This document shows, one piece after another, positions 3,651 through 47,902 of a DNA stretch of 64,000 nucleotides. Under the pieces are notes generated by a model. That model was not told where the DNA came from and searched no databases. It saw only the letters and a list, made by a program, of their open reading frames with translations. A program made the position numbers and the translations under genes. The stretch's first letter is position 1. Every line of letters begins with the position of its first letter. Source of the stretch: a virus (lineage: Duplodnaviria > Heunggongvirae > Uroviricota > Caudoviricetes); IMG/VR virus record IMGVR_UViG_3300029996_000255, one strand, 5' to 3'.

Positions 3651-5279
3651 ATGAGTACCTATTATGAATATCAGGATGTAGGCGTAATGATGGCACATAA
3701 GCTTATGGCAATGGACGGATGGGAAGTGTTCGGATATCATGCAGACCATAGCGACATGATGACAGATTATTATGATCCTGCTTATTGGGGTGGAATTGCT
3801 ACAAAGAATGGATATATATTAGTTGTAAATTGGAGCAGAGATGCAAAGCCAGAAGAAATACGCAAATATAATTATGATGGAATACTTCAGGATAGAAGTA
3901 TTTCAGAAAAGATTGCAAAGCTTGAACAGATGACAATGGAAAGAGGAGCAAGTGAACAGGAAGAAGAATCAGCAAAGAAAATGATTGAGAAGTTACGGAG
4001 TAAGGCAAACGAAACTTCTGAAAAATATATTGTAACTGGTATTATTCCTGGACATATGGCAAACCCACCTAGAATGAATTGGCATATTGAAAAAGATGGT
4101 GTCTATGTAGCGAAAGGAAATGGAATTTTAAAGTTCGCTCATATTGATAACTATTATAGATATGAAGGCTACATGAAAGATATGCAGAATTTCAGAACTA
4201 TGAAGCGAGAAGAATATAAAAAATCTTTGATAACAACCTATATGGGTAGATGGAATGATGATGAAGAAAGTGCAGCACGACAGGCAGACAGTCATATTGA
4301 ATCAATGGAAAAAGATAAGGCACTTATGGATCAGTTCGAGGCATTTATCAATAAAATTGATACTACTTGTGGTGGAATGCTTGGAGAAGGAGATGGAGTT
4401 GTATATGAGAAGGTAAAAGTTACTGAATATAAAAAGGAAAACAAAGCTGTTGAAACAGAAAACGGATGTGTCAAAGATGGTCAGTGCTTTATCTTAAAAA
4501 CATCATTCAATTATGGCAGAAATAAGGGATATGTTTACAGAATTAAAGCAACTGTGTATGAGGATGGAAAAACTTCTTATCATGCATATAAACTTAATGG
4601 AAAACTTACAAAAGAATGTACAGGAAATGCAAATCAGGCTAATCACTGGTTTATTGGTACTATGACCGATGGATTTATGAAGTGGGTAAATAAAGGTGCT
4701 ATTGCATGGTGTGAAATTCAGGAAGTTAAAACACCTTATGAGGTTGAAAAGGTTGTAAAGAAAGTTATCAAGTCTAATACAAATAAGACAGAAACAAAGG
4801 CGACTGAAACTGATGTGGACGTAAATAAATATACCTACGAAGTAACAGAAGATACAGACACACGAACAGGAGAAAAGATATATCTTGCAAAGGTAATTGA
4901 GAAATTAAGCCGTGAAGAATATATCAAGGTAAATCAGTATATCAAATCTCTTGGAGGCTATTATAGTAAGTTCAAACATGCTTTCTTATTCAAAGAGAAT
5001 CCATGTGAAAAATTAAATGTAACTATTAAAGAGACAGAGAATAATACAGTGGACGATGCAACAGAACGTACAGAAACACAAATCACATACACTGTAACAG
5101 AAGATGTACACACCAAGACAGGTGAAAAGCTATTTGTAGTAAAGCCTGATACAGAATTATCAAAATCAGACTTTGCAGATGTAAAGCGAAAGCTGGCAAC
5201 ATTACAGGGATTTTACAGTAGCTTTAAGAAGGGATTTATATTCAAATATGATCCAACTGAAAAACTTAGTACAGTATAA
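3651..5279 (+). CDS. large hypothetical protein (542 aa) with two C-terminal tandem ~60-aa repeats (TGEK[IL]..K...LS..[DE][FY]..VK..L..L.G[FY]YS.FK.[AG]F[LI]FK..P.EKL)
   Basis: ORF track; GCGAGGTTGA RBS; internal repeat read from the translation. Confidence 0.7.
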   Translation: MSTYYEYQDVGVMMAHKLMAMDGWEVFGYHADHSDMMTDYYDPAYWGGIATKNGYILVVNWSRDAKPEEIRKYNYDGILQDRSISEKIAKLEQMTMERGASEQEEESAKKMIEKLRSKANETSEKYIVTGIIPGHMANPPRMNWHIEKDGVYVAKGNGILKFAHIDNYYRYEGYMKDMQNFRTMKREEYKKSLITTYMGRWNDDEESAARQADSHIESMEKDKALMDQFEAFINKIDTTCGGMLGEGDGVVYEKVKVTEYKKENKAVETENGCVKDGQCFILKTSFNYGRNKGYVYRIKATVYEDGKTSYHAYKLNGKLTKECTGNANQANHWFIGTMTDGFMKWVNKGAIAWCEIQEVKTPYEVEKVVKKVIKSNTNKTETKATETDVDVNKYTYEVTEDTDTRTGEKIYLAKVIEKLSREEYIKVNQYIKSLGGYYSKFKHAFLFKENPCEKLNVTIKETENNTVDDATERTETQITYTVTEDVHTKTGEKLFVVKPDTELSKSDFADVKRKLATLQGFYSSFKKGFIFKYDPTEKLSTV

Positions 5280-5322: not shown

Positions 5323-5529
5323 ATGGTAAATATGGTAATTGGAAATTATGAATATGGAATTAGTTATCTTCCAGATAATTGTATGGCTTATAAAGATGGT
5401 TATAGATATGGTGCATATAAAGAAAATATTAATGACAAAAATGATGCACATATAACAGAATGGTTCAAAACAAAAGATGAGATACAAAAATTCGTAAATC
5501 AACATAGAGAATATGGAAAAGAGGTATAG
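5323..5529 (+). CDS. hypothetical protein
   Basis: ORF track; AAAGGAAATGG RBS. Confidence 0.45.
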   Translation: MVNMVIGNYEYGISYLPDNCMAYKDGYRYGAYKENINDKNDAHITEWFKTKDEIQKFVNQHREYGKEV

Positions 5530-5532
5530 ATT

Positions 5533-7167
5533 ATGTTTACAGATAACAAAGATTTCTACCCAACGCCACAAAATCTTATAGATAAAATGCTTGATGGATT
5601 GGATTGGAAAATGATACATACAGTTCTTGAACCATCAGCAGGTAAGGGAAATATTGTTGAAGCATTAAAGAAAAAGGAAGATTTTAATAACAGATGGTAC
5701 ACAACAATCAAGTTAAATATTGACTGTATAGAGAATGACGTAAACTTACGAGCAGTATTAAAGGAAAAGAATTTCAGAGTTGTACATGATGATTTTTTGA
5801 CATACGACACAATGAAGGAATATGACTTAATTATTATGAATCCTCCGTTCTCAAATGGATGTAAACATCTGTTAAAAGCATTGGAAATGCAACAGAGAAA
5901 TGGCGGTGCTGTTATTTGTCTACTTAACGCAGAGACATTAAAAAATGAATGCAACAATGAAAGAATAATGCTGAATAGAATGTTAGAAGAATACAATGCA
6001 GACATTCAGTATATTCAGGATGCTTTTATGGATGCAGAGAGAAAAACAAACGTTGAAATTGCATTGATAAAAGTAAAACTTCCAGATGTACAGAGAGATT
6101 CTTTTATCTTTGATAGCTTAGAGAAAGCCAAGGAACAGAGAGAATATACATATAACACAGAAAACACGCAGCTTGCAGAAAATGATTTTTTAAAGGCAAT
6201 AGTCGAACAGTATAAAATGGAAGTTGAAGCAGGCGTGAAACTCATTAAAGAGTATTATGCAATGTCACCACATATCCTATATCAGTTTGGAAAAGACAAG
6301 CAGACAGGACAGACAATACAGACTGGCGGTTGCGTGTTAAATCTTAGTATTGGAAAAGATAGTGCATCAGTAAACGGATATATAAGAGAAATTCGTGGTA
6401 AATATTGGTCAGCATTATTTGATAATCCGAAGTTCATTGGTCAGCTCACAAATAATTTGCAGAGAGAATACTATAACAAGGTCGAAGAATTAAAAGACTA
6501 TGAATTTTCGCTGCACAATATATACGAACTGAAAATTGATATGAGCAAGAAAATCATAAAGGGAATTGAAGATACAATTATTTCACTCTTTGAAGAACTG
6601 AGTAATAAATATTCCTATTATGATGAATGCAGTAAGAACATTCATTATTTTAATGGATGGAAAACAAATAAAGCATGGATTATAAATAAAAAAGTAATCA
6701 TTCCATTAAGAGGATGGAGAGATTTGGAATATTCATGGGGTGGATTTAAACCAACCGATCACGATGTAGTAAGCAAATTAAGAGATATTGAAAAGTGCTT
6801 CAATTATCTTGATGGCGGCTTGACAGAAGCAGTTGATTTATTCCAGTCACTAGAATTTGCTGAAGAATATGGAGAGTCAAAAGATATTGTATTGAAGTAT
6901 TTCAATGTAACTTTTTATAAGAAGGGAACTTGCCACATTACATTTACAAATGAAGAGTTATTGAAAAAGTTCAATATATTTGGAGCACAACATAAAGGAT
7001 GGCTGCCACCTTCATATGGAAAGAAAAAATATTCTGATATGACATTAGAAGAAAAAGCAGTTGTAAATGACTTTGAAGGTGAAGTTGAATACAACAAGGT
7101 AATGTGCAACACAAGTTATTATCTGGCAGACACAAACAGTATGTTGATGTTGGATATGGCAGAATAG
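5533..7167 (+). CDS. N6-adenine DNA methyltransferase. The N-terminal domain has the AdoMet-binding motif LEPSAGKGN and catalytic motif IV, IIMNPPFS; a ~340-aa C-terminal extension is a putative target-recognition region
   Basis: motifs I and IV read from the translation; motif order I then IV (gamma-like). Confidence 0.7.
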   Translation: MFTDNKDFYPTPQNLIDKMLDGLDWKMIHTVLEPSAGKGNIVEALKKKEDFNNRWYTTIKLNIDCIENDVNLRAVLKEKNFRVVHDDFLTYDTMKEYDLIIMNPPFSNGCKHLLKALEMQQRNGGAVICLLNAETLKNECNNERIMLNRMLEEYNADIQYIQDAFMDAERKTNVEIALIKVKLPDVQRDSFIFDSLEKAKEQREYTYNTENTQLAENDFLKAIVEQYKMEVEAGVKLIKEYYAMSPHILYQFGKDKQTGQTIQTGGCVLNLSIGKDSASVNGYIREIRGKYWSALFDNPKFIGQLTNNLQREYYNKVEELKDYEFSLHNIYELKIDMSKKIIKGIEDTIISLFEELSNKYSYYDECSKNIHYFNGWKTNKAWIINKKVIIPLRGWRDLEYSWGGFKPTDHDVVSKLRDIEKCFNYLDGGLTEAVDLFQSLEFAEEYGESKDIVLKYFNVTFYKKGTCHITFTNEELLKKFNIFGAQHKGWLPPSYGKKKYSDMTLEEKAVVNDFEGEVEYNKVMCNTSYYLADTNSMLMLDMAE

Positions 7168-20670: not shown

Positions 20671-20850
20671 ATGATAACAACAGGAATTGTAAGACGCTTT
20701 GACGACTTAGGGAGAATACATATTCCAAAAGAAATTAGAAAAAAGGTGTTTGGAAAATATAATGTAGAAGGTACACCTATGGAAATTTTTTATGATAAGG
20801 ATGGAAATATTATTATAAAACTATACAAGGAGAGCAATGTCAATGAGTAA
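20671..20850 (+). CDS. AbrB/SpoVT/MazE-type swapped-hairpin DNA-binding protein (59 aa; GIVRRFDDLGRIHIPKEIRKKV)
   Basis: near-canonical AbrB N-domain motif; GAAAGGTTGTGATATGA RBS; absent from the ORF track because under 60 aa. Confidence 0.55.
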   Translation: MITTGIVRRFDDLGRIHIPKEIRKKVFGKYNVEGTPMEIFYDKDGNIIIKLYKESNVNE

Positions 20851-22493: not shown

Positions 22494-22829
22494 ATGCCAA
22501 GAATTAGAGATTGTGTTATTTGTGGTAAGAGGTTTACAAGTTACCATGGAATAAATGTATGTAGTGAACAATGTAAAATAGAAAAAAAGAAACGACAAGA
22601 TGAAAATTCGAATAAAAGAAGATATAGTAAGGAATCGAATACACCAATAATTAAAATCTGTCCTATTTGTGGAGAAAAGTTTGAAACACTTAGAAGAACA
22701 TATTGTTCAGAAGAGTGTTCTGAGAAAGCACATAAAATACATGTAAAGGAAATTTCAGATCAATACTATAAAGATCATAGAGAAGAAATAATTGATAAAG
22801 TAAAAGAAAGAAAGAGTAATAAATATTAA
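22494..22829 (+). CDS. hypothetical protein with two tandem zinc ribbons (C.ICG[KE][RK]F...CSE[QE]C repeated)
   Basis: ORF track; GGAAGGAAAA RBS; internal repeat. Confidence 0.5.
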   Translation: MPRIRDCVICGKRFTSYHGINVCSEQCKIEKKKRQDENSNKRRYSKESNTPIIKICPICGEKFETLRRTYCSEECSEKAHKIHVKEISDQYYKDHREEIIDKVKERKSNKY

Positions 22830-22844
22830 TCATAAGGAAGCAGA

Positions 22845-22876
22845 AATCAACTGCTTCTTTTTTATTGCAAAAATGA
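22845..22876 (+). terminator. intrinsic terminator (GAAGCAG/CTGCTTC stem, loop AAATCAA, then TTTTTTATT)
   Basis: perfect 7-bp stem plus T6. Confidence 0.7.
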
Positions 22877-22888
22877 GGTGAATAATGT

Positions 22889-23146
22889 TTGAGTAGATAT
22901 AAGAATGGAAACCCAAAACATGCAAGTCGATTCATATGTTTAAAATGTATGAATGAAAATATGTTAGCCAGTGGAATTCAGAGACAGAGACAAAGAGAAC
23001 GAAAACATATTAAGGATTTGTATTGTTTGAAGTGTGGAGAGGTAACGAAGTGCATCGAAGTAAGATTTTGTGATTCTTATGAAGAAATTTTTGAGGTTGC
23101 AAAGATAAAAAGAGAGAATTATTACATAGACAATTATGAAAGGTAG
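22889..23146 (+). CDS. hypothetical zinc-ribbon protein (CLKCMN...CLKCGE)
   Basis: ORF track; AATGAGGTGAATAATG RBS. Confidence 0.45.
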   Translation: MSRYKNGNPKHASRFICLKCMNENMLASGIQRQRQRERKHIKDLYCLKCGEVTKCIEVRFCDSYEEIFEVAKIKRENYYIDNYER

Positions 23147-24152
23147 GTTGATGATAATGTGTTATAAAATAGAAGTGCAGAATAAAAATGCGGAGAAGCT
23201 TAATAAAAAATTAGATGAGTTAAATGCACCACAATTTTTAAGAGATTACTTAAATGAGTTGGAAAGCAAAAACGGAGCGCTAAATTATTTAGTGGCAATT
23301 AAAGATTTTTTACAGTGGTTGATTGAAAGTAATATTATTAATAAGAAATCAATTTCTGAAATAGAAGTTTCTGATTTTAATGACCTAAGACCACAAAATA
23401 TTAGTTCATATCTTAGATATAAGGAAACAAATGGAATGTCACCAACCACAACAGAAACAAGGAAAAATATCATTAAAAGTTTTATACAGGATATTTATTC
23501 ATACAGAGAGTGTTTGTTAAGAGAAGTTTATAGTAATATAGAAGATTTTTACAAAATGATTAAATATAAGGGAATCCCATCTGGAAACAACTTAATAAAA
23601 AAACTTCCAACAGAAAAGCAGCTTAATGACATGGAAGAGAAGATAATGTGGAAAAAGGATATTGCAGTAAAAAATAGGAATATTGCTATCTTTAGGGTAT
23701 TAAGGGGCACTGGTATAAGAGAGTCAGAGCTTGCTGGCTTAGATTTATCTGATTTACATTTGAAGGAAGAAATGCCATACATTACTATTCTTGGCAAAGG
23801 TGTGTACAGAGAAATGCAAAATAGAACCGTATATCTTAGCGGATCAGCCTTAAAAGCATTGAAAGAGTGGTTAGAGTATAGGTTGACATTGGATAATATT
23901 ATTGATACAGAAGCAGTTTTTATTAATAAAAACGGAACACGTACAACAGAGAAAAATATTAAGCAGATATTTGAAAATTACGGAAATGGTATTACTGCAC
24001 ATATGATGAGACATTATTATGCTACTGTAATGAATCAAAATGGAAATCTTGCATTCGTACAACAGCAGCTTGGGCATAGTAGTGTAAAAACAACTGTCAA
24101 AAATTATGCAAATGGAGCAGTGGGAATGAAAGATGTACTAAATAATATGTGA
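23136..24152 (+). CDS. int: tyrosine site-specific recombinase / phage integrase (alternative starts at 23151 and 23157)
   Basis: C-terminal catalytic motifs R..ELAGL, HMMRHYYAT, LGHSSVKTTVKNY read from the translation. Confidence 0.85.
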   Translation: MKGRLMIMCYKIEVQNKNAEKLNKKLDELNAPQFLRDYLNELESKNGALNYLVAIKDFLQWLIESNIINKKSISEIEVSDFNDLRPQNISSYLRYKETNGMSPTTTETRKNIIKSFIQDIYSYRECLLREVYSNIEDFYKMIKYKGIPSGNNLIKKLPTEKQLNDMEEKIMWKKDIAVKNRNIAIFRVLRGTGIRESELAGLDLSDLHLKEEMPYITILGKGVYREMQNRTVYLSGSALKALKEWLEYRLTLDNIIDTEAVFINKNGTRTTEKNIKQIFENYGNGITAHMMRHYYATVMNQNGNLAFVQQQLGHSSVKTTVKNYANGAVGMKDVLNNM

Positions 24153-24186
24153 TATGTAAAGGACAATACAGATTAGTTTGTGTCGT
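24153..24186. terminator. possible bidirectional hairpin between the convergent int and repressor genes (AAGGAC...GTCCTT)
   Basis: 6-bp stem with a long loop. Confidence 0.3.
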
Positions 24187-24439
24187 CCTTATTATTTAAT
24201 TTATAAAATTCATTTGTATAAGCTAGTAATCGTTTCATTTGAGCATCATCTGTATCAAGTATTTCAATTGGTGAACAGTTTAATTCTTTGCAGATTGATT
24301 CTAAAATATCAAATTTAATCGAGGTTGATTCACCTTTATAGATTTTGTCGATTGTTGGATATGTTACTCCTATTTTTTTAGCCAGTTCATAACGTGTCAT
24401 ATTTTTTTCTTTTAACTTATTTTGAATAGATAATCTCAT
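24173..24439 (-). CDS. XRE/cI-like helix-turn-helix repressor (MTRYELAKKIGVTYPTIDKIYKGE...). The upstream part of the track ORF (to 24595) is read-through into the promoter region
   Basis: HTH_XRE motif; AGGAGG RBS before ATG 24439 (minus strand). Confidence 0.8.
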   Translation of the reverse strand: MRLSIQNKLKEKNMTRYELAKKIGVTYPTIDKIYKGESTSIKFDILESICKELNCSPIEILDTDDAQMKRLLAYTNEFYKLNNKDDTN

Positions 24440-24515
24440 AAATGCAATCCTCCTATATACATAGAGTACCATATATAAAAGAAAAAATAAATATAAAAAA
24501 TAATTGTAATAATAC

Positions 24516-24544
24516 TTGACAATATATATAGTGAAGTATATAAT
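24516..24544 (+). promoter_or_regulatory. consensus sigma-70 promoter (TTGACA, 17-bp spacer, TATAAT) driving the mazF-like gene; the spacer contains the recurrent ATATATATAGTG element
   Basis: -35 at 24516-24521, -10 at 24539-24544, read directly. Confidence 0.6.
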
Positions 24545-24587
24545 ACAAAATATCAAAGGAACAAACAGAGAAAGGAGGGCTAAAGCA

Positions 24588-24938
24588 ATGGACATAAAAC
24601 GTGGTGAAATATACTTCGCAGATGTAGGTAGATATGATTCTCAGGGTTCTGAACAGAGTGGTAGAAGACCAGTGTTAATACTTCAGAATGACATTGGAAA
24701 TAAATTTAGCCCTACCACTATTATTGCCATTATAACTACGAAGTCTAAAAGGGAATTACCAACTCACGTTGAGTTACATAAAGATAAATTCAACGGATTA
24801 AAACACGATTCTGTTGTAGCTCTTGAACAAATTACCACAATAGATAAAGATAGACTAAAGTTTAAGATTGGTAATTTATCTAATGATGATAATGTTCGTG
24901 TTATGGAAGCGATGAAAATAAGTCTGGCTATGATATAG
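24588..24938 (+). CDS. mazF: MazF/EndoA(NdoA)/PemK-family endoribonuclease toxin (116 aa), very similar in sequence pattern to B. subtilis EndoA
   Basis: RGEIYFADVG...GSEQSGRRPVLILQNDIGNKFSPTTIIAIITT...LPTHVEL...DSVVALEQITTIDKDRL; AAAGGAGGG RBS. Confidence 0.85.
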   Translation: MDIKRGEIYFADVGRYDSQGSEQSGRRPVLILQNDIGNKFSPTTIIAIITTKSKRELPTHVELHKDKFNGLKHDSVVALEQITTIDKDRLKFKIGNLSNDDNVRVMEAMKISLAMI

Positions 24939-24953
24939 GAGAGAGGAGAGAAT

Positions 24954-25253
24954 ATGTTTATGAAGACAGAAGCATATGATTATTCAACAATTGATGAAGC
25001 TATAGAAAGATTACAGAAGTTGAAAACTGAAGGTAAAAATCCTAAAAATGTAGTAATACTTACAATGGATTTTGATAATAATACTTCGTCAAAAAAAATT
25101 GCGTCACCTGATGATGGATGTCTTTTAGTAAAGAAGTCAAAGACAATTATTATGAATGAAGATGAATATATTCCACACATGCAGCTTTTTAATACAGAAC
25201 AGAATATAAAGAATATCATTAGAAGAGGAATAATGCATGACATACTATTATAA
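24954..25253 (+). CDS. hypothetical protein (99 aa) downstream of mazF-like
   Basis: ORF track; GGAGAGAGGAGAGAATATG RBS. Confidence 0.45.
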   Translation: MFMKTEAYDYSTIDEAIERLQKLKTEGKNPKNVVILTMDFDNNTSSKKIASPDDGCLLVKKSKTIIMNEDEYIPHMQLFNTEQNIKNIIRRGIMHDILL

Positions 25254-25402
25254 TAATTTGTCCAGATAATAGAATAGAAAATATGATAAAATATAGTATT
25301 CGTAATAATTCTGCTATATTTTATCTTTACATAATTTGAGATTTTATGCAGTGTGTATAAAATAAAATGCAAAATTGTTTCGAATATATGTTTGTGTTCT
25401 AT

Positions 25403-25431
25403 TGACATCGAATACATGTTCGGATTATAAT
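25403..25431 (+). promoter_or_regulatory. sigma-70-like promoter (TTGACA, 17 nt, TATAAT) with an overlapping imperfect palindrome ATCGAATACATGTTCGGAT and an upstream TTCGAATA direct repeat
   Basis: read directly; lies in a 450-bp AT-rich intergenic region. Confidence 0.45.
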
Positions 25432-25708
25432 ATGCAATATGGAAATGGAAATAAGAAATAAAAGAGACTATACGGATGCTCGTGCGACCAAACACTTTTT
25501 GAACATCATCATATATAGCCTCTTTCTACGAAGGAGAAGAGCAACAATGTACTCTACTCACATTTATTATATGATATTTCTTTATTTTTAGTCAATGTAC
25601 TTTCGTACATTTTTTCCAAAAATTACCAAATTTAATAGTGTTTTAATTTTTCTTTGGTATACCCAAAGTTTATTAAAGTACGCCAAAAATCAGAAGGGAG
25701 TGATTTTT

Positions 25709-26302
25709 TTGGATTATGTAATAAGAAGTGGCAAAGTTTATATCCGTGTCAATAATGGGAAAACAGAAACTTGTGCAGAAAAAATGAAAGGTATATTTAG
25801 TGAAACAAAAGCAAGAAATATATTACATTCATTACCAAAAACATTAAAGAGATATGGTTTTCATATCGAAGCAATACCTGATATACCACCTAAAACCATA
25901 GAAAATAATACATATAAAATACCCGAATCCGTTTCACAATGGATTGATAAATTCGGTTCAATTGGACAGACGTTAAATGAAGCGGAAGCGAGAAGTAACA
26001 TACTCATAGCTGAACTTAATACTTGTGATGATGAACTTATAGATATTGTTCATGATGCTGAATTAGAGAATGATATGAATATGTATAAAGGATATCTGTT
26101 ATATGTCAGACTTCGTAAGAATCGTAGAAGAAGACGTGAATTAAAGGATGAACTAATGATTATATCTGATGTATTGGATGAAATAAAGCAACCATCAAAA
26201 TTTCAAAAAGAGCGTATTCAGAAAGCTGTTGATGGATTATTACATAGAAAATATAAGTATCGTGTTACGGAAATAGAAGAAGATGAAAAAAGTGCGAAGT
26301 AA
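25709..26302 (+). CDS. hypothetical protein; start refined to TTG 25709 with AGGGAG RBS, since the upstream portion of the track ORF looks like non-coding read-through
   Basis: RBS spacing; codon usage shifts after 25709. Confidence 0.45.
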   Translation: MDYVIRSGKVYIRVNNGKTETCAEKMKGIFSETKARNILHSLPKTLKRYGFHIEAIPDIPPKTIENNTYKIPESVSQWIDKFGSIGQTLNEAEARSNILIAELNTCDDELIDIVHDAELENDMNMYKGYLLYVRLRKNRRRRRELKDELMIISDVLDEIKQPSKFQKERIQKAVDGLLHRKYKYRVTEIEEDEKSAK

Positions 26303-26338
26303 ATCGAGAATATATAAATGGAAAGGTAGGTAGATGGC

Positions 26339-26995
26339 ATGATTAATAAAGAAATGATGTTGGTTATTAAAAACAATCCTAAATTGTCAGAAATACTTGA
26401 TTTATATATGGCAAATGAAATGAAGAAGTTAAAAAATATTTGCTATAAAATATGGAAAGGTAAGGTTGATAATTACGAAGAAGATGAATTGCTTGACGAT
26501 GCTATAGAAGTATTAATAGAATCTTTAGTTACATATGACGCTAAAAGTAAGGCAAAATTTGAAACTTACCTAACGGGTAATATTTCAAGATCGTCTTACA
26601 GTTGGTTTCGGGATAATAAATATACAGGCTGCCGAAATAATCTTGCCAGAGATGGTAATGGAAAGATTATATATGAAGATGTTAATGGCAAGAAAAGACC
26701 TATAAGAATTGACAATGTTTCATTTGACTTGGATAGTGACGAAATACAGAATTTAAAAGAAACACTATCATCCAAGATAAACATAGAAGATATTCTCATT
26801 GCGGAGGAATATACAGATAAGGTTGAACTATATCTTAGCAATTTACCTAAAAGAGTTAGAGGCGTAGCAAAGTTATTTTCTCAAGAATACAATCGAGATG
26901 AAATTATGGAATTATTACATATAACAGAACAACAATTATTAGACTGTATGAAGATTCTAAAGTCATACGAATACATATCATTATTATTTAATTAA
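26339..26995 (+). CDS. sigma-70-family (ECF/phage-type) RNA polymerase sigma factor-like protein; region-2-like segment DDAIEVLIESLVTYDAKSKAKFETYLTGNISRS and region-4-like HTH segment LPKRVRGVAKLFSQEYNRDEIMELLHITEQQL
   Basis: motif resemblance read from the translation. Confidence 0.5.
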   Translation: MINKEMMLVIKNNPKLSEILDLYMANEMKKLKNICYKIWKGKVDNYEEDELLDDAIEVLIESLVTYDAKSKAKFETYLTGNISRSSYSWFRDNKYTGCRNNLARDGNGKIIYEDVNGKKRPIRIDNVSFDLDSDEIQNLKETLSSKINIEDILIAEEYTDKVELYLSNLPKRVRGVAKLFSQEYNRDEIMELLHITEQQLLDCMKILKSYEYISLLFN

Positions 26996-27013: not shown

Positions 27014-28558
27014 ATGGCAGTAATGTTAGGAAGAGATAAGGTAGTAAAGACACAATTAATGTTAGGAACGGTGATTAAGCAGTTTAGAACAAATGTAATC
27101 AATAAGAATCATCCATTACAGAGAAAACCTGATCAGTGGTCGGACGAAGCAAAATCTGGACTTGCTGCCAGTGTAATTAAACATGAAGATATTGATTCAA
27201 TTAAATTATGTGAACAGATTTACGAAAATAGTTTCACAAACTGGCTTATTGATGGATTACAGAGATTAACTGTATTGGAAGAGTTTAAAAATAATGTCTT
27301 TGCAATGGGAAAATCATTGAGAATGCCTATGATAGCTTATCAAGCTGAAGATGGAAGTGGTAATGTTGTTGAGTATGATTTAAGAGGTAAGAAATACAAA
27401 GACCTTCCAGATGAGTTAAGAGAAGAATTTGATAATTTCCAGGTAGATATAGTTAAGCATCTTGATTGTACTAATGAAGAGATAGCTTATCATATTGATA
27501 GATATAATAAGCAGACAAGTATGAATACAAATCAGAAAAATGTTTTGATGATGTATAAAGTGGTAGATTCACTTAAAAGGGTTACAAAGAATAGATTCTT
27601 CTTGGACTGTGGTGAATATACAGCACCTGAAAGAAAGAAAGAAGTATTAAATAGAGTAGTTGAAGAGTCATTAATGTTAATGTTCCATTCTGATTCTTGG
27701 AAGAAAAACGCAGCTATGGCTAAGTATCTTAATGAAAATGCCGCAGAAGAGGAATTCAATATATTAGAAGAGGAACTTAATAGATTACAAAAAGTAATAG
27801 ATCAAGATACTAACGGACAGTTATTTAATAGCAAGAATAGCTTTATTTGGTTGGCAGCTTTTCATAAGTTTACTTCATATAACATAGAAGATATTAAATT
27901 TGCTGATTTCTTAAATGAATTTCAGGGAATATTACATAGCATGACATTTAAAGAATATGATAATGAATCATTTGATACATATGATAGCAACCGAAGCACA
28001 AAGGATAAAAAAGTTGTAATGGCTAAGTTAGATATGGTTACTAAGCTTATGGAAGAATATTTACATATAAATAAGGAAGAAACTCATTCAGAAATCGAAG
28101 AAGTTGTTGAAAATACAACAGAAAACACAGTACAAATTATCTCTGGAACAGAGAATAATACTATGTCTTCTAATGAAGACGATGAAACAGATAGTAATAT
28201 ATCAGAACAGAATACGGGTAGTTCTGATGTATTACAGTTTGTTCAAAATAGTGTGGCAGAAGATATAGAGAATGAAGATATAAGTGAATATCAAGATTTT
28301 GTTGATGTATATATTGATATAAATTCATCGTTATATAAACAGTGTGAAGCAGCGTTAATGGCATTAACAGCTTATGCTTATAAAACTGATAAGGATGAAG
28401 AACTTGCAACTTGGATTGAACAGTATCAGAAGAATTCAATTGATAAGACATATAGTTCTTCGCAGGAAGTAAATTATAGATATATGAAGAGAGATTTTGA
28501 TAATTACATAAATTTCTTAAATAATATGGAGAAAGGAAGAACAGCTAGTGTTAATTAA
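27014..28558 (+). CDS. DUF262 (ParB/GmrSD-N-like) domain protein with the IDGLQRLT motif; long acidic low-complexity C-terminal tail and no recognisable HNH/DUF1524 domain
   Basis: DGQQR-type motif at residues ~79-86. Confidence 0.55.
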   Translation: MAVMLGRDKVVKTQLMLGTVIKQFRTNVINKNHPLQRKPDQWSDEAKSGLAASVIKHEDIDSIKLCEQIYENSFTNWLIDGLQRLTVLEEFKNNVFAMGKSLRMPMIAYQAEDGSGNVVEYDLRGKKYKDLPDELREEFDNFQVDIVKHLDCTNEEIAYHIDRYNKQTSMNTNQKNVLMMYKVVDSLKRVTKNRFFLDCGEYTAPERKKEVLNRVVEESLMLMFHSDSWKKNAAMAKYLNENAAEEEFNILEEELNRLQKVIDQDTNGQLFNSKNSFIWLAAFHKFTSYNIEDIKFADFLNEFQGILHSMTFKEYDNESFDTYDSNRSTKDKKVVMAKLDMVTKLMEEYLHINKEETHSEIEEVVENTTENTVQIISGTENNTMSSNEDDETDSNISEQNTGSSDVLQFVQNSVAEDIENEDISEYQDFVDVYIDINSSLYKQCEAALMALTAYAYKTDKDEELATWIEQYQKNSIDKTYSSSQEVNYRYMKRDFDNYINFLNNMEKGRTASVN

Positions 28559-29769: not shown

Positions 29770-31158
29770 ATGGGAAACAATAGAATGACAATTTGTAGAA
29801 AAATTAAATTATTTCCAGTAGGAGATAAGGATGAAATCAATAGAGTATATGACTTTATTAGAAATGGTCAGTATGCTCAATATCAGGCTTGTAACCTGCT
29901 TATGGGACAGCTTATGAGTGAATATTACAAATATAATCGTGATATTAAGAATGAAGAATTTAAGGCAAGACAGAAAGAAATAATGACAAACTCTAATATC
30001 ATATTAAAAGATATTGATTTTGCAACTGGTGTAGACACTCCATCAGCCGTTACTCAGAAAGTCAAGCAGGATTTCAGCACAGCTTTAAAGAATGGATTGG
30101 CTAAAGGTGAACGAACTGTAACAAATTATAAGAGAACTAATCCACTTATTACAAGAGGCAGAAACTTAACTTTTTATCATGAGTATGAAACATATCATGA
30201 TTTTTTAGACAAGATTAATGATTCTGATTTGGCGGTATATGTCAAGTGGGTTAATAAAATTGTATTTAAGGTTGTGTTTGGCAATCCGCATAGGTCATTA
30301 GAGTTAAGATCTGTTATTCAGAATATATTAGAAGAGAATTATAAAGTGCAAGGAAGTAGCATTGAAATTGATGGTAAGTCAATCATTTTAAATCTCTCAA
30401 TATCTATTCCAAAACAACTTAGAGAGCTGGATGAAAATATAGTAGTAGGTGTTGATTTAGGCATTGCAGTTCCTGCTATGTGTGCTTTAAACAATAATCT
30501 TTACGAGAGATTGGCAATTGGAAATGCAGATGATTTTCTAAGAATAAGAACTAAAATGCAAGCTCAGAGAAAAAGATTACAGAAGTCATTACGAAATACT
30601 TCTGGTGGTCATGGTAGAGCAAAGAAACTGAAAGCATTAGAAAGATTGCAGAAAGCAGAAGTACATTTTGTTGAAACATATTGTCATATGATAAGTAAAA
30701 GAGTCGTTGATTTTGCTTTAAAACATAATGCTAAATACATAAATATTGAGAATTTAACAGGATATGATACAAGTGATTTTATCCTGAGAAATTGGAGTTA
30801 TTATAAACTTCAAGATTATATTACATATAAAGCAGCTAAATACGGAATAGAAGTAAGAAAAATCAATCCTTGTTATACATCACAGATTTGTAGTGTATGT
30901 GGTAATTGGGAGTTTGGTCAGAGAAAGTCACAGTCAGTATTTGAATGTGCAAATGAGAATTGTGATAGTCATAAAAAATATGAAAAAACTGGTTTTAATG
31001 CAGACTTCAATGCTGCCAGAAACATTGCAATGTCAACTCTTTGGATGGGAAGTGGACAAGTTACTGAAAAGAGTAAACAGGAAGCAAGAGAATATTATGA
31101 TATCTCTGAAAAATATGAACAAAGTAAGAATGGTTCAGAGAATAATAAAGTAGCTTAA
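29770..31158 (+). CDS. TnpB/Cas12f-like RuvC nuclease (462 aa): RuvC-I VVGVDLGIAVPAM, Arg-rich helix, RuvC-II YINIENLTG, CxxC...CxxC zinc ribbon (CYTSQICSVCG...FECANENCDSH), RuvC-III NADFNAARNIA; catalytic D/E/D all present
   Basis: domain order and motifs match OrfB_IS605 plus the Zn-ribbon architecture; AAAAGGAGA RBS. Confidence 0.8.
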   Translation: MGNNRMTICRKIKLFPVGDKDEINRVYDFIRNGQYAQYQACNLLMGQLMSEYYKYNRDIKNEEFKARQKEIMTNSNIILKDIDFATGVDTPSAVTQKVKQDFSTALKNGLAKGERTVTNYKRTNPLITRGRNLTFYHEYETYHDFLDKINDSDLAVYVKWVNKIVFKVVFGNPHRSLELRSVIQNILEENYKVQGSSIEIDGKSIILNLSISIPKQLRELDENIVVGVDLGIAVPAMCALNNNLYERLAIGNADDFLRIRTKMQAQRKRLQKSLRNTSGGHGRAKKLKALERLQKAEVHFVETYCHMISKRVVDFALKHNAKYINIENLTGYDTSDFILRNWSYYKLQDYITYKAAKYGIEVRKINPCYTSQICSVCGNWEFGQRKSQSVFECANENCDSHKKYEKTGFNADFNAARNIAMSTLWMGSGQVTEKSKQEAREYYDISEKYEQSKNGSENNKVA

Positions 31159-38822: not shown

Positions 38823-39377
38823 ATGTCAAATTTATATGTATATTTAATTCGTTCTCGAAATAAAGACAATAAGGATATTCCAAATTTCAAAGAACGAGCC
38901 GAAACAATTCTTGAATGTAGAGAGAATGAAGACAAGGTAATTGAAGATTTTAAGAGTTTTGCAGCTGAAGGAGTTCCTGGTGAACAGACAAGGTTGTATA
39001 GGTCGGTTAATTCAAGAAACGAAGAGAAAATCAGAGAAGAGTTTGTTATTCGTCTGTTAAGAGATAAACCAAGTATGACCCGGTTAAATCGCACATTAGC
39101 ATCTGTTGCACAACAGGTACAGAATCGTGATGAGAGTAAGTGGTTGTTTGATTTTGATGTGGATGATGATAGTTTAGTTTTAGAATTTATCTATGATATT
39201 ACAAATTATGGAATCGTGTTTAATCAAATCAAATTGTATAAGACACCGAATGGGTTTGCCGTTATAGTTCCGCATGGATTTGATACAAGAGAGCTGATGG
39301 AAAAGTGGAAAGATTATGACATTACATTGAAAAAAGATGAGTTGTTGTTTTTGAATATGATAACGAATGGAGAATAG
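38823..39377 (+). CDS. hypothetical protein (184 aa)
   Basis: TAAGGAGAATAAATACA ATG. Confidence 0.5.
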   Translation: MSNLYVYLIRSRNKDNKDIPNFKERAETILECRENEDKVIEDFKSFAAEGVPGEQTRLYRSVNSRNEEKIREEFVIRLLRDKPSMTRLNRTLASVAQQVQNRDESKWLFDFDVDDDSLVLEFIYDITNYGIVFNQIKLYKTPNGFAVIVPHGFDTRELMEKWKDYDITLKKDELLFLNMITNGE

Positions 39378-39378
39378 T

Positions 39379-40119
39379 ATGTACGAAAAATTGAGAGAAT
39401 ATATAGAAGAATCAAATGATATTGTATTCTTTGGTGGAGCAGGTGTATCTACTGAAAGTGGTATTCCAGATTTTCGTTCCAAGGATGGATTATATAATCA
39501 GCATGATGTTCAGTTTGATAAATACGAGCCAGAGTATCTTTTGAGTAGAGAATGTTTATATAACAATCCAAAAGTATTTTATGAATTCTATCGTCAGAAG
39601 ATGGATACAAGAAACATTGAGCCAAACATTACTCATAAGGTACTTGCTAAAATGGAAAAGATGGGTAAGCTGAAGGCTATTGTTACACAGAATATTGATG
39701 GACTTCATCAGAAGGCTGGCAGTAAAAATGTATTTGAGATTCATGGAACTACTCAGAAAAATTATTGTAGCAAATGCAAAATGGAATATCATCCTGATTT
39801 CTTATTCGATACTAAAGAAGCTATCCCAAAGTGTAAATGTGGTGGACTAATCAGACCTGATGTGACTTTATATGGAGAAAAATTGCCTGATGAAGCTGTA
39901 AATGGTGCTGTTGAAGCAATTAGTAAAGCCGATATGTTGATTATTGGTGGTACTTCATTACAGGTTTATCCAGCAGCAAATTACATCTCATATTTTAGTG
40001 GTAGACATTTGATTGTTATCAATAGAGAAAAAATCCATGTGCTATTGAACGGAGATACTGATTTGATGATTGTTGATTCGTTGGGTAATGTATTTACTGA
40101 GATTGAGAAATGGATGTGA
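39379..40119 (+). CDS. Sir2-family NAD+-dependent protein deacylase / ADP-ribosyltransferase-like protein (CobB-like, 246 aa)
   Basis: GAGVSTESGIPDFRS NAD-binding motif; Zn-binding CSKCK...CKCGG; GTSLQVYPAA motif. Confidence 0.85.
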   Translation: MYEKLREYIEESNDIVFFGGAGVSTESGIPDFRSKDGLYNQHDVQFDKYEPEYLLSRECLYNNPKVFYEFYRQKMDTRNIEPNITHKVLAKMEKMGKLKAIVTQNIDGLHQKAGSKNVFEIHGTTQKNYCSKCKMEYHPDFLFDTKEAIPKCKCGGLIRPDVTLYGEKLPDEAVNGAVEAISKADMLIIGGTSLQVYPAANYISYFSGRHLIVINREKIHVLLNGDTDLMIVDSLGNVFTEIEKWM

Positions 40120-41065: not shown

Positions 41066-41699
41066 AGAAGTTAAAGTAAAAGCAAGAAGTAGAAATACAA
41101 AATTATTCGAGAGTTTGGGGTATAAGATTCCAAGAGACAAAGATGATCGAGGAAGAACTCGTGTAGTCCCTAATGCTACCATCATGGTTAAAATAGAGGA
41201 TCTACCAGAAGGGAGCAATGCAATAGTTAAATATCAATGTGATGATTGCGGTTCAATACATACAGTACATTATTCAGATTTAGCATATAGAAAAAATAGT
41301 CGTTTTAAGAAAAATGGTGAGACGTTATGTATTTATTGTTCTAATCATAGAAATTCTGGACAAAATAATCCTCAATATAAACATGGAGAACAAAGGTATT
41401 CTGAATATAGAAGTAACGCACGAAATAGGGGAATAGAGTTTAAACTGTCAGTTGAAGAGTTTAAAAATATAGTAAAACAACCTTGTCATTATTGTGGAGG
41501 ATTTTCATCAGAGTGGAATAAAAATAGCAGAGGTAATGGAATAGATAGAAAAAATAGTGACATAGGTTATATTTATGAAAATTGTGTTCCGTGTTGTAGT
41601 AAATGTAATTTTGTAAAAAACAATACCCCATATGATAAATTTTTGATATATATACGGAGGTTATATGAGACAACAAAGAATTATAAAATTTCGAAATAG
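41001..41699 (+). CDS. HNH homing endonuclease inserted inside the C5-methyltransferase gene (CHYCGG...NGIDRKNSDIGYIYENCVPCCSKCNFVK). Start uncertain; alternative ATGs at 41025-41031
   Basis: HNH motif; sits in a different frame from both methyltransferase halves. Confidence 0.7.
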   Translation: MKLYIIITMMMNGRWWKILLTKEVKVKARSRNTKLFESLGYKIPRDKDDRGRTRVVPNATIMVKIEDLPEGSNAIVKYQCDDCGSIHTVHYSDLAYRKNSRFKKNGETLCIYCSNHRNSGQNNPQYKHGEQRYSEYRSNARNRGIEFKLSVEEFKNIVKQPCHYCGGFSSEWNKNSRGNGIDRKNSDIGYIYENCVPCCSKCNFVKNNTPYDKFLIYIRRLYETTKNYKISK

Positions 41700-42210
41700 A
41701 AAGACAGGTGAAATTCAAACTTTTTCAGTAAGATTGATAGACTCTTCTTTATTTGGTTCTCAGAATCGTGAGAGATATTATTGGACAAACATACCGCTAG
41801 GTGAATTGCCTGAAGAATCTCCATTAGTTTTGAAAGATATTATGGAAAATAATGTAGGTGAGAAGTATTTCTACAAGAAGGACTTTGAGATTTTGGATAT
41901 GAATAAGCGTGTATGTGCTGAACTAAAGGTCAACACAACAGAAATGTGTAAAAGAATTTATAATCCAGATTTCAAAATGTCAACATTAACATGCGTGTCA
42001 GGTGGATATCACGAAAAGAAAGTATTAGATAGTGGTAGACCACGAAAACTTACAGAAGTTGAATATGAAAGATTACAGGGATTGCCTGATAATTTTACAA
42101 AAATTCAGCTTAACAATCGTTGGTTATCATACTCAAAAAGATGTAGTTTGATGGGCAATGGATGGAATGAACCTACTATTGAATGGATTTTGAGTGGGTT
42201 AAGAGAATAA
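41665..42210 (+). CDS. C5-cytosine DNA methyltransferase, C-terminal half (motif VIII QNRERYYW, target-recognition domain, motif IX RKLTEVEYERLQGLPDNF, motif X GNGW), with its own RBS (ACGGAGG) and ATG
   Basis: motifs read from the translation. Confidence 0.7.
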   Translation: MRQQRIIKFRNRKTGEIQTFSVRLIDSSLFGSQNRERYYWTNIPLGELPEESPLVLKDIMENNVGEKYFYKKDFEILDMNKRVCAELKVNTTEMCKRIYNPDFKMSTLTCVSGGYHEKKVLDSGRPRKLTEVEYERLQGLPDNFTKIQLNNRWLSYSKRCSLMGNGWNEPTIEWILSGLRE

Positions 42211-45191: not shown

Positions 45192-46028
45192 ATGATTAAA
45201 ATTAATGGTGAAATTGTAGCAATCAACAAGTTCCCAGATGGAACACCAAGAGTAAATATTGATACAAACAACATCGAGGAAGACACTTATGATGGCTCTC
45301 CTTGCATTTGGATTGAATGGATTTATGAGAGTAACGATGAGATGTTTTATCTGATGTTAGTAAGGAAACATCTTGAAAGATTTTTTACTAATGTGGATTA
45401 TTATTTATATCTTCCATATATTCCTAATGCACGAATGGATAGAGTAAAAAATGATGATGAAGTATTCACATTGAAGTATTTTTGCGATTTTATCAATTGG
45501 TTAGGATTTTCATCAGTTTATGTTTTAGATGCTCATAGCGATGTTTCTACTGCATTACTCAATAATTGTGTAAAAGAAAATCCAAAAGAGTATGTTGATA
45601 AAGCTATTTCAAAGATTGGCATGAGAAATCTTGTACTTTATTTCCCAGACGCAGGTGCAGCTAAGAGATATTCAGATTTATTCCCTGAGTTACCATATTG
45701 TTATGGTGAAAAGAAAAGAGATTGGAAGACTGGCAAAATCCTTGGATTAGACATTATAACAAATGGTATTGATTTGAAGGACAAAGCTGTGTTAATGATT
45801 GATGATATTATCGCATATGGCGGTTCACTTTATTATAGCGCAGAAGAATTAAAGAAGATTGGTGTAAATGAGATTTATGCTTATGCAACACATACAGAAA
45901 ATTCAATTCTTGATAAAGAAAAGGGTACGTTGATTAAGTCTTTGGAGAATAATACAGTGAGAGCATTATTCACAACAAACAGTATTTTTACTGGCAAGCA
46001 TGAAAAGATTACAGTTATGGAGGTTTAA
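45192..46028 (+). CDS. ribose-phosphate pyrophosphokinase (PRPP synthetase)-family protein; candidate ADP-ribose pyrophosphokinase (Adps) of an NARP1-type NAD+ reconstitution pathway
   Basis: PRPP/phosphoribosyl-binding loop VLMIDDIIAYGGSL; adjacent to a NAMPT homolog. Confidence 0.65.
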   Translation: MIKINGEIVAINKFPDGTPRVNIDTNNIEEDTYDGSPCIWIEWIYESNDEMFYLMLVRKHLERFFTNVDYYLYLPYIPNARMDRVKNDDEVFTLKYFCDFINWLGFSSVYVLDAHSDVSTALLNNCVKENPKEYVDKAISKIGMRNLVLYFPDAGAAKRYSDLFPELPYCYGEKKRDWKTGKILGLDIITNGIDLKDKAVLMIDDIIAYGGSLYYSAEELKKIGVNEIYAYATHTENSILDKEKGTLIKSLENNTVRALFTTNSIFTGKHEKITVMEV

Positions 46029-46032
46029 AATT

Positions 46033-47493
46033 ATGGATAACACAATGGCTTTATTACTTAGTGATACTTATAAGCAGTGTCATGATCGTATGTACCCAAA
46101 GGGATTAACTAAGTTAGTCTCATATTGGGTGCCTCGTAAATCAATGTTGGAAAATCAGAATCATATGGTTTTCTTCGGATTACAGGCTTTTATTAAGGAA
46201 TATCTAATTGGATATTTCCAGAAGAATTTCTTTGAATTATCAGAGAATGAGATGTTATCTCTTTATACAGATTCAATGGATGTGCAGATTGGCAGAGATA
46301 ATTACGACTTAGAGAAGATTGTAGAACTTCACAGACTTGGTTATCTGCCACTTGAAATTAGAGCTTTACCAGAGGGAACACTTGTACCAATGGGAGTTCC
46401 TTGTATTGAAATTACCAATACAGATGACAAATTTGCATGGCTTGTTCAGTGGATTGAGTGTATCCTTCAGGTTGAATTATGGAAGCCTTGCTGTCACGCA
46501 ACTATTGGTCATATGTATCGTGAGATTGCAGATTATTGGTATAACAAAACAACAGACGGTTTACCTGGCAATATGGCTTGTGCCGATTTTGGTATGAGAG
46601 GTATGTCTTGTATGGACGAAGCTACAAGATGTTCTGCTTCATGGTTATTATCTTTCAATAAGACTTCAACTATTCCTGCCATTACATATATTGATAAATA
46701 TTACAATGCTGATTGTAAGAATAATGGTATTGGAATTGGTGCAGTGTCAACAGAACATTCCGTAATGGGAGCAAATTACTCAATTGATGGTGATGAGATT
46801 ACATTTGTTAAGAGATTGCTTACAGAATTATATCCAAATACTTCATTCAGTATGGTTTCAGATACTTATGATTATTGGAATATGGTAAACAATATTCTTC
46901 CACAGTGCAAGGAAGAAATTATGAATCATAATGGCAAGTTACTTGTTCGTCCTGATAGTGGTGATATTGTAGAGATTTCAGTTAAGACAGTAGAAAGATT
47001 ATGGGATATCTTTGGTGGTTCTATCAATGGCAAGGGTTATAAGGTGTTAGATCCACATATTGGTATTATCTATGGTGACGGATGTACTCTTTCTAATGTA
47101 GAAACTATTTGGAAAGAATTAGAAAAGCGTGGATTTGCAGCTAATAACATTGCTTATGGTGTAGGTGCATTTTGTTTTACAGCTATTGTCGAGAATGGAA
47201 AGATGATTGTTGTTACAAGAGATACTTTTGGAATTGCAATGAAGGCTACTTATGGAGTTATTGATGGTAAGAAGCTTATGATCTTCAAAGATCCGAAGAC
47301 TGATACAAGCCATTTAAAGAAATCTCATAAGGGGTGTTGCAAAGTATATGAAGAAGATGGAGAACTGAAGTGTCAGGATCAGTTACTCGATATGAATGAA
47401 GATAGTTTGCTTACAACTGTATTCAAGAATGGAGAATTAGTAAGAGAGGATACATTTGAGGACATTAGGAACAGAATGTATGGAGGAAAGTAA
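46033..47493 (+). CDS. nadV: nicotinamide phosphoribosyltransferase (NAMPT/NadV) family protein; candidate Namat
   Basis: N-terminal LLLSDTYKQCHDRMYPKG...VSYWVPR pattern and ~490-aa size typical of NAMPT. Confidence 0.7.
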   Translation: MDNTMALLLSDTYKQCHDRMYPKGLTKLVSYWVPRKSMLENQNHMVFFGLQAFIKEYLIGYFQKNFFELSENEMLSLYTDSMDVQIGRDNYDLEKIVELHRLGYLPLEIRALPEGTLVPMGVPCIEITNTDDKFAWLVQWIECILQVELWKPCCHATIGHMYREIADYWYNKTTDGLPGNMACADFGMRGMSCMDEATRCSASWLLSFNKTSTIPAITYIDKYYNADCKNNGIGIGAVSTEHSVMGANYSIDGDEITFVKRLLTELYPNTSFSMVSDTYDYWNMVNNILPQCKEEIMNHNGKLLVRPDSGDIVEISVKTVERLWDIFGGSINGKGYKVLDPHIGIIYGDGCTLSNVETIWKELEKRGFAANNIAYGVGAFCFTAIVENGKMIVVTRDTFGIAMKATYGVIDGKKLMIFKDPKTDTSHLKKSHKGCCKVYEEDGELKCQDQLLDMNEDSLLTTVFKNGELVREDTFEDIRNRMYGGK

Positions 47494-47494
47494 T

Positions 47495-47902
47495 ATGGAT
47501 TTTTATCTTCAAGCCAATAATTCCTACAATAGATTAGAGGAAGAATTTAAGAAATATGGCAAGCTTATTTTTTGTGTAGATTTCGATGATACGATTTATG
47601 ACTTCCATAAGAAGGGTAGGACATATGAGAATGTCATTAATCTTTTACAAAGATGGGAGAATTATTCAGAGATAATTATTTTTACTGGGAATGGTGAAGA
47701 TAAATACGGAATGATTGAGCAGTATCTAAAGGACAACAATATCAAGTATAGAGGTATCAATTGTGACGCATCTGTAGCTTTTGCAAGTAGAAAAATATAT
47801 GCAAATGTTTATATTGATGACAGAGGCGGTTTAATTCAGGTGTACAATGAATTACTTACATTGATTGAGAAGATTGAAAAAGGAGAGATAAAGCATGAGT
47901 AA
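47495..47902 (+). CDS. HAD-superfamily hydrolase-like protein (motif I FCVDFDDTIY)
   Basis: DxDxT motif; GGAAAGTAAT ATG. Confidence 0.5.
   Translation: MDFYLQANNSYNRLEEEFKKYGKLIFCVDFDDTIYDFHKKGRTYENVINLLQRWENYSEIIIFTGNGEDKYGMIEQYLKDNNIKYRGINCDASVAFASRKIYANVYIDDRGGLIQVYNELLTLIEKIEKGEIKHE

Follow-up and report, generated by a model that had tools for sequence, protein, structure and literature searches.

MazF endoribonucleases are, to our knowledge, among the best studied bacterial toxins, and the partner of such a toxin is almost always a MazE encoded upstream of it. Here we analyze a phage-borne MazF with a different neighbor, located in a stretch of 64,000 nucleotides (hereafter, the window) from the IMG/VR record IMGVR_UViG_3300029996_000255, a virus of the Caudoviricetes. 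The toxin gene belongs to a locus (24173-25253) formed by a divergent XRE-type regulator, mazF and an open reading frame (ORF) encoding 99 amino acids, which we call ORF99. A preliminary description of this DNA had read the locus as an orphan MazF/EndoA-type toxin in the cro position of the lysogeny switch, with no adjacent antitoxin. From comparative sequence analysis, we consider it probable that ORF99 is instead the cognate neutralizer of MazF, and that both genes form a toxin-first type II toxin-antitoxin (TA) pair with a new antitoxin family. Taken as a whole, we read the locus as a self-contained three-gene toxin module that lies where a large gut phage (~155 kb or more) probably controls its lysis-lysogeny choice.

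Several described systems share parts of this organization. In the EndoA/EndoAI system of Bacillus subtilis (ndoA-ndoAI; structures 4ME7 and 4MDX), the antitoxin EndoAI is a ribbon-helix-helix (RHH) protein that is encoded upstream of the toxin and autoregulates the operon. The phage toxin is homologous to EndoA, with 57% identity over the full length, and has the catalytic Arg and Thr and other invariant positions in common with it, while the phage partner is encoded downstream, is unrelated to EndoAI in sequence and fold, and has no DNA-binding domain. Antitoxins without a DNA-binding domain are found in the omega-epsilon-zeta and paaR-paaA-parE systems, where a third small DNA-binding protein controls the promoter. 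Compared with these, the phage module uses another toxin family, has the toxin gene first, is flanked by a divergent regulator that is not the first gene of the operon, and exchanges XRE for RHH regulators. The toxin gene also precedes the antitoxin gene in HigBA and MqsRA, but HigA and MqsA, unlike ORF99, are helix-turn-helix (HTH) proteins that also regulate.

Regarding the choice of partner, TA networks are characterized by partner swapping and hyperpromiscuity (NetFlax; PMC10440598), and the phage locus resembles them in pairing a MazF/PemK-fold toxin with a non-canonical partner, ORF99 matching no Pfam or PADLOC model. Phage-encoded inhibitors of host MazF have been described in the arbitrium lysis-lysogeny circuit of phi3T and SPbeta, namely AimX and YosL (PMC10769878). 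Like the role that we propose for ORF99, these are non-MazE MazF binders encoded by phages and acting in the lysis-lysogeny circuitry of Bacillota phages; however, they act on the host MazF through a MazE-like helix, whereas ORF99 travels with a phage MazF and lacks that helix. Finally, in the RacR-YdaS/YdaT system of the rac prophage, the cro position is occupied by a toxic gene under the control of a divergent cI-like repressor (PMC5700373). That toxin is no MazF-family RNase and lacks a protein inhibitor of its own, in contrast to the phage MazF with its conserved downstream partner.

The toxin gene (24588-24938, plus strand) encodes a protein of 116 aa that is an EndoA-type MazF/PemK endoribonuclease, as the preliminary description had proposed. 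It matched the Pfam family PF02452 (PemK_toxin) with an E-value of 1.4e-30 and 106.1 bits (cut-off 23.1), residues 4-112 aligning to positions 1-108 of the 109 of the profile; PHROG 1936, 'MazF-like growth inhibitor', with an E-value of 2.5e-30; and the B. subtilis EndoA/YdcE structures 4ME7, 4MDX and 1NE8 with E-values of ~5e-31. Among the known defense systems covered by PADLOC, it had no match. Residues R27 and T50 of the phage protein align with R25 and T48 of EndoA, which we take to be the catalytic pair from structural work on that enzyme (BsMazF). Both residues are invariant among the 34 distinct variants of the clade (34/34) and in 12 of 12 divergent MazFs linked to ORF99, so the concern that alignment would reveal altered catalytic residues, and hence an inactive MazF-fold protein, has been dispelled. 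The median pairwise ratio of non-synonymous to synonymous substitution rates (dN/dS) was 0.10, a sign of strong purifying selection. We predict that this gene encodes a catalytically intact EndoA-type toxin.

ORF99 (24954-25253, plus strand) starts 15 nt after mazF and belongs to a family of ~90-115-aa proteins that follow MazF/PemK genes and are probable antitoxins; its true start may be the ATG at 24960, which is used in many homologues. Wherever a related IMG/VR locus continues beyond the toxin gene (59 loci), MazF is followed by an intact ORF99 homologue, the sole relative without one being a contig that ends there. In four further loci, whose MazF is only 39-41% identical, a distant member of the ORF99 family occupies the same place. 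All the divergent ORF99 lineages that were looked up (11/11; P0042, P0088, P0079, P0082, P0070, P0095, P0064, P0085 and the partners of P0132 and P0128) have a PemK_toxin gene directly on their 5' side, separated by gaps between -26 and +36 nt. In the loci that we designate L143 and L144, the MazF-ORF99 pair is kept in other gene contexts, with no adjoining divergent HTH or RHH gene. Since the pair also occurs without a divergent HTH gene, the two-gene unit is what is conserved: mazF and ORF99 are small, adjacent and co-oriented genes, and their linkage is maintained across divergent homologues and contexts.

As a control, we examined the 80 closest MazF loci in species-representative genomes, with 51-58% identity to the phage toxin and, in all but one case, named as Bacillota, Clostridia, Peptococcaceae or Bacillaceae. 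An EndoAI-type MazE lies directly upstream of the toxin in 65 of these loci, and the ORF99 family is found in none (0/80). Conversely, a phmmer search with EndoAI over ~75 ORF99-linked phage loci retrieved no EndoAI-like ORF, and the 148-bp gap between the start of the XRE gene and mazF contains no ORF. The lack of a MazE/EndoAI-like gene upstream of MazF, already pointed out in the preliminary description, is confirmed. The label of an orphan without an adjacent antitoxin did not survive the comparison: across deep divergence, ORF99 is the constant genomic partner of the toxin, in place of the upstream MazE. Taken with the selection acting on both genes, this linkage and the mutual exclusivity with MazE carry what, judged from sequence, would be the signature of an antitoxin replacement with reversed gene order.

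One locus, L140 (~5366-5671 of the 508-kb scaffold ERZ28617382 scaffold_2), has lost 1 nt from an A-run, which puts the ORF99 homologue out of frame, with an intact and identical MazF. This may reflect a mistake in assembly or genuine natural variation. Relative to L141, L140 also shows two substitutions in the operator/-35 region that perfect both the palindrome (see below) and the TTGACA hexamer.

The ORF99 family is small and deep. A profile search over 1.84 billion representatives gathered 50 clusters at 50% identity, with members down to ~22% identity with ORF99 and one invariant Gly near the C-terminus. With a median pairwise dN/dS of 0.03, ORF99 is under strong purifying selection, tighter than that on MazF. 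Its sequence gave no match in Pfam, PHROGs, NCBIfam, PADLOC or the PDB sequences, and profiles from the first three detected no HTH, RHH, AbrB or MazE domain, in agreement with the earlier remark that the downstream ORF has no RHH/AbrB features. ORF99 hence shows no DNA-binding domain of the kind by which type II antitoxins typically autoregulate their operon; in its place, the loci have a divergent XRE or RHH gene of their own. The AlphaFold model predicts a compact globular alpha/beta domain, with a predicted local distance difference test (pLDDT) score of 89.3; an earlier model, built from a shallow alignment, had reached 47. Searching the model for known folds returned no relative, and BFVD gave merely a member of the same family.

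Given that EndoAI binds MazF through a helix mimicked by AimX and YosL (PMC10769878), we also considered whether the C-terminal segment IIRRGIMHDI of ORF99 is a counterpart of the EndoAI helix LMRRGYMEMA. This reading was rejected: the RR pair is not conserved in the family, hhalign against EndoAI gave a probability of 0.2% over 9 residues, and the model places it in a beta-strand within the fold. We found no description of the ORF99 family in the literature that we searched. Its members were detected only on contigs of uncultivated phages and metagenomes. In a set of 185,579 species-representative genomes, the ORF99 query had no match, and the MazF query matched chromosomal EndoA alone, with identities of 58% or less. 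Likewise, among GenBank phages and PLSDB there were no relatives, no DNA match to 22800-26400 and no match to the ORF99 family.

Two other proteins had been put forward as candidate neutralizers. The first, encoded at 20671-20850, is a 59-aa DNA-binding protein of the SpoVT/AbrB type (NCBIfam spore_V_T, E-value 8.9e-16 over the N-domain). Of six contigs with an identical MazF-ORF99 pair, only one encodes it; since relatives that do not otherwise differ may have or lack this gene, it has no tie to MazF and we rejected it. The second, the XRE protein itself, is an unlikely neutralizer at the protein level: relatives carry unrelated HTH or RHH proteins in its stead, and the pair is kept in L143 and L144 with none adjoining. 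As a separate observation, two phage MazF genes without an upstream MazE are followed by genes for 51-53-aa proteins of the SHOCT_2 family (PF20612; L067 3542-3697 and L068 4393-4554), which may be another family of toxin-first MazF partners.

The XRE gene (24173-24439, minus strand) encodes a probable repressor of 88 aa of the XRE/Cro-C1 type (Pfam HTH_26, 3.2e-17; HTH_3, 1.5e-10). It consists of the HTH only, with no peptidase, self-cleavage or oligomerization domain. On the plus strand, the MazF-ORF99 operon is preceded by a sigma-70/sigma-A promoter, TTGACA-17-TATAAT (24516-24544), that matches the consensus at 12 of 12 positions and is one of only two perfect plus-strand promoters between 14000 and 33000. 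The divergent arrangement and the consensus promoter thus agree with the preliminary description. The -35 box and the spacer are overlapped by an inverted repeat, an imperfect 28-bp palindrome (24512-24539; ATACTTGAC-N10-GTGAAGTAT), which is a candidate operator and occurs as a single copy in the window at up to 3 mismatches. Scanning the XRE-MazF intergenic region for consensus promoters, we found no minus-strand promoter for XRE.

Relatives have other regulators in the divergent position: HTH proteins of five or more further types (14-57% identity) and, in L136, an RHH protein. Each of the replacing regulators brings its own repeat over a near-consensus promoter, mostly palindromes, with direct repeats in L020 and L027. 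The 5' untranslated region (5'UTR), MazF and ORF99 remain constant across all the regulator types, with the recombination boundary between the -10 box and the transcript start. As the regulator and the palindrome co-vary upstream of an invariant 5'UTR, we take XRE as the repressor of the MazF promoter, which is its most likely role judging from these sequence patterns. By analogy, such regulator swapping resembles the exchange of immunity cassettes in temperate phages. A mosaic of regulator plus operator upstream of MazF, similar to an immunity region, is seen in L003-L062 (~3850-4000).

The recombinase gene upstream of the module and the XRE gene are convergent, and between them lies a terminator-like hairpin (24159-24190) with a predicted folding energy of -13.3 kcal/mol (z -3.05), followed by UUAUUAUUUAAUUU. 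The right arm of the hairpin encodes the last codons of XRE (KDDTN). An equivalent hairpin is found beside unrelated regulators in ten loci (L010, L020, L021, L027, L032, L037, L038, L075, L142 and L145), and it is because this conserved arm is coding that unrelated regulators end in a common KDD(T/A)K tail. The hairpin probably ends upstream transcription of the plus strand. Downstream of ORF99, minimum free energy and centroid folds of 25240-25420 tentatively place a 14-bp AU-rich hairpin followed by a U-rich stretch (25285-25325, plus strand), a possible weak terminator that was not flagged by a consensus terminator scan. The upstream hairpin, together with the downstream hairpin and a fresh promoter behind it, suggests that the operon is insulated.

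Under the toxin-first reading, XRE would bind the palindrome over the -35 box of the consensus promoter and control transcription of MazF and ORF99, while ORF99, devoid of a DNA-binding domain, would bind and neutralize MazF. Control of transcription would thus be outsourced to an exchangeable divergent repressor, following the logic of omega-epsilon-zeta. At steady state, MazF and ORF99 would sit as an inert complex. Should synthesis stop, either because the element is lost or because the promoter is shut, ORF99 would decay or be titrated and MazF would be freed. The released toxin would then cut mRNA, probably at U^ACAU like EndoA, and arrest the cell. Such a pair could serve in prophage addiction, in exclusion of the abortive-infection type or in modulating lysis-lysogeny. 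A bolder version, that the ORF99 family is a structurally new, phage-restricted MazF binder which forms, with MazF and swappable repressors, a tripartite lysis-lysogeny switch, in which MazF is the first gene expressed from the early promoter under repressor control and, like the host MazF in phi3T, an effector of the decision upstream of a LexA-gated sigma-factor operon, and is not merely an addiction system, is possible but on the doubtful side.

Several points weigh against a neutralizing role for ORF99. Neither its sequence nor its fold resembles that of a known antitoxin; a count of its residues gives a net charge close to neutral; and in the model it appears compact and globular, when labile antitoxins are usually partly disordered. 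The linkage could equally be conserved if ORF99 assisted MazF as a co-factor or co-effector. If the frameshift in L140 is real, MazF can be tolerated without ORF99. Besides, a divergent repressor is seldom part of a TA operon, and XRE's own promoter did not emerge from the consensus scan.

Some of these observations could be explained if MazF were the free toxin of the preliminary description, silenced solely at the transcriptional level by XRE, as in RacR, and unleashed on de-repression as an effector of lysis-lysogeny or exclusion, with ORF99 as an unrelated or co-operating early gene. A strong consensus promoter with a palindrome over its -35 box, regulator-palindrome cassettes that swap like immunity regions, and an adjoining promoter with LexA boxes are all in line with this scenario, as are the lack of similarity of ORF99 to any antitoxin and the frameshifted homologue beside an intact MazF in L140; there is also a precedent for a toxin in the cro position against which a repressor takes the part of the antitoxin (PMC5700373). 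However, within the clade the ORF99 family is never found apart from MazF, nor the reverse, even where no divergent HTH gene is present; it exactly replaces MazE; and it is constrained even more than the toxin. Moreover, an unopposed EndoA-type RNase on a leaky consensus promoter would be hard to carry. On balance, we regard silencing by the repressor alone as unlikely.

MazF could also be an early nuclease for host shutoff, with phage transcripts spared by motif avoidance and ORF99 only timing or limiting its activity. The motif of EndoA-type MazFs is presumably UACAU (cut at U^ACAU), which we assume for the phage enzyme from its 57% identity. If so, avoidance by the phage is not supported: on the coding strand of the window the motif is not depleted, with 133 occurrences where a third-order Markov model predicts 115 (z +2.3), around one per 480 nt, and the mazF gene itself contains it, as read from its sequence; another motif would alter this count. 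The perfect early-type promoter, the abundance of 'MazF-like growth inhibitor' genes in gut phage genomes (PMC12291355) and the absence of an upstream MazE at many other phage MazF genes speak in favor of host shutoff, which we nevertheless judge highly improbable. Similarly improbable is that ORF99 acts chiefly in counter-defense against the host chromosomal MazF, in the manner of YosL and AimX, the phage MazF having been acquired secondarily or serving as a decoy: some phages do influence lysis-lysogeny through proteins that bind the MazF of the host (PMC10769878), the 51-58% identity between the phage MazF and the chromosomal EndoA of Bacillota makes cross-inhibition conceivable, and the window is rich in candidate counter-defense genes (DNA methyltransferases and an NAD-synthesis cluster), yet no ORF99-family member was found without its own MazF, either among the divergent lineages or in the whole clade, the MazE/YosL-type helix is absent, and the catalytic residues of the phage MazF are kept under purifying selection.

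The module is followed by a second perfect promoter, P2 (TTGACA-18-TATAAT; 25402-25431, plus strand), which also matches the consensus at 12 of 12 positions and, lying outside the toxin module, provides context for it. P2 precedes orf235, a gene for a sigma-like factor (26339-26995) and a gene for a DUF262/GmrSD_N/NsnA-like protein (27014-28558). In its -35/-10 spacer lies a LexA/Cheo box, CGAATACATGTTCG (25409-25422), which is the sole match in the window to CGAAC-N4-GTTCG, the LexA consensus of Bacillota (PMC4551915, PMC4234289), at up to 1 mismatch. A second box with 2 mismatches, CGAATATATGTTTG (25381-25394), is located 28 nt upstream of the first. Among 62 related loci, 45 have boxes at up to 1 mismatch at this spot, with hardly any others across ~8 kb; typically they come as a pair spaced by 28 nt, and L076-78 have perfect ones. 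The position of these predicted boxes suggests that the host LexA may directly control the sigma-factor operon of the phage. Host LexA is known to act on a phage promoter at dinBox1 of GIL01, a 15-kb tectivirus that needs the co-repressor gp7 (PMC4551915). As in GIL01, boxes of the CGAAC-N4-GTTCG type overlap a phage promoter in P2, where there are two, 28 nt apart; in contrast to GIL01, P2 belongs to a genome of ~155 kb or more and precedes the gene of a sigma-like factor, and its boxes are predicted.

According to these results, the lysogeny-switch setting that the preliminary description had given to the locus is plausible, because P2 carries conserved LexA boxes and precedes the sigma-like factor gene. 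A divergent repressor gene, an early promoter and an overlapping operator palindrome are all present, and a link to the SOS response is provided by the predicted LexA boxes on P2 and not by XRE. Lysogeny switches also have several operators and a repressor with an oligomerization or self-cleavage domain; here we found one palindrome in the window and a repressor consisting of its HTH. A further caveat concerns the gene labeled as an integrase: the recombinase is Xer-like, is co-directional with the other genes, and is shuffled independently.

This Xer-like tyrosine recombinase (23136-24152, plus strand; Pfam Phage_integrase, 1.2e-27) had XerS, XerC and XerA as its best NCBIfam matches, every one of them below the cut-off. 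Inspection by eye shows its catalytic R, H-x-x-R, H and Y motifs. Among relatives, recombinase types shuffle independently of the regulator type, and in some of them a second tyrosine recombinase lies ~8 kb upstream (upstream regions of L128 and L131). Integrase-fold repressors occur in SPbeta-like phages (PMC10516654), and by analogy the recombinase may have a regulatory role. A tblastn search of the phage collection at an E-value of 1e-10 returned no record of a Bacillus or SPbeta-like phage, so, in terms of close similarity, the recombinase is not a close relative of the integrase-fold repressor MrpR.

The window has a G+C content of ~30% and nearly all its genes lie on the plus strand, XRE being the sole convincing minus-strand gene seen in it. 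Protein-guided scans of IMG/VR yielded ~60 close relatives, on contigs that top out at ~150-165 kb. All of them share the gene order Zn-ribbon protein, tyrosine recombinase, regulator (minus strand), MazF, ORF99, a variable gene, sigma-like factor and DUF262/GmrSD_N-like protein. Metagenome contigs with an identical ORF99 are as long as 300-709 kb (317-709 kb for those of L126-L131 and L140), while the IMG/VR genomes of the clade are near 160 kb with consistent ends; in the 158-kb contig of L142, the module lies 7 kb from the contig end. The long contigs may represent an integrated prophage, a larger genome or an artifact. LexA of the Cheo-box type is that of Gram-positive bacteria (PMC4551915, PMC4234289), and the combination of such sites with the closest MazF homologues makes Bacillota our best guess for the host.

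Elsewhere in the window we observed a cluster related to nicotinamide adenine dinucleotide (NAD), with genes for Sir2 (39367-40119), ribose-phosphate pyrophosphokinase (Prs; 45192-46028), NAMPT (46000-47493) and NAD synthetase (NadE; 47895-48638), which may be an NAD-reconstitution set for counter-defense. There are also four DNA methyltransferase genes (5533-7167, 41665-42210, 49738-50610 and 62801-63625) and, in the same co-directional array, a tnpB gene (OrfB_IS605/Cas12f-like; 29770-31158). Homing-type endonucleases are encoded in the window as well.

As a member of the MazF/EndoA family the toxin is ordinary, and annotations of phage-borne MazF are common (PMC12291355); likewise, neither the toxin-first order nor the swapping of partners is new in principle (PMC10440598). 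The novelty seems to lie in the unannotated ORF99 partner family without a known fold relative, as well as in the three-part layout in which an exchangeable divergent regulator stands beside a sigma-factor promoter with predicted LexA gating. In a whole clade of abundant, uncultivated large gut phages, an EndoA-type MazF is thus accompanied by a different partner, encoded downstream and of unassigned structure, and by a regulator that is detachable. Should ORF99 turn out not to be the neutralizer, this would be a phage toxin controlled by a repressor only, which would be still more unusual. If ORF99 does neutralize MazF, it would bring a new antitoxin fold into the MazF network and provide a new natural MazF inhibitor, and many 'orphan' MazF annotations in phages (PHROG 1936) may be mis-read toxin-first pairs. 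The setting of the pair, between a repressor cassette and a LexA-gated promoter, would then make a role of an RNase toxin in lysis-lysogeny testable.

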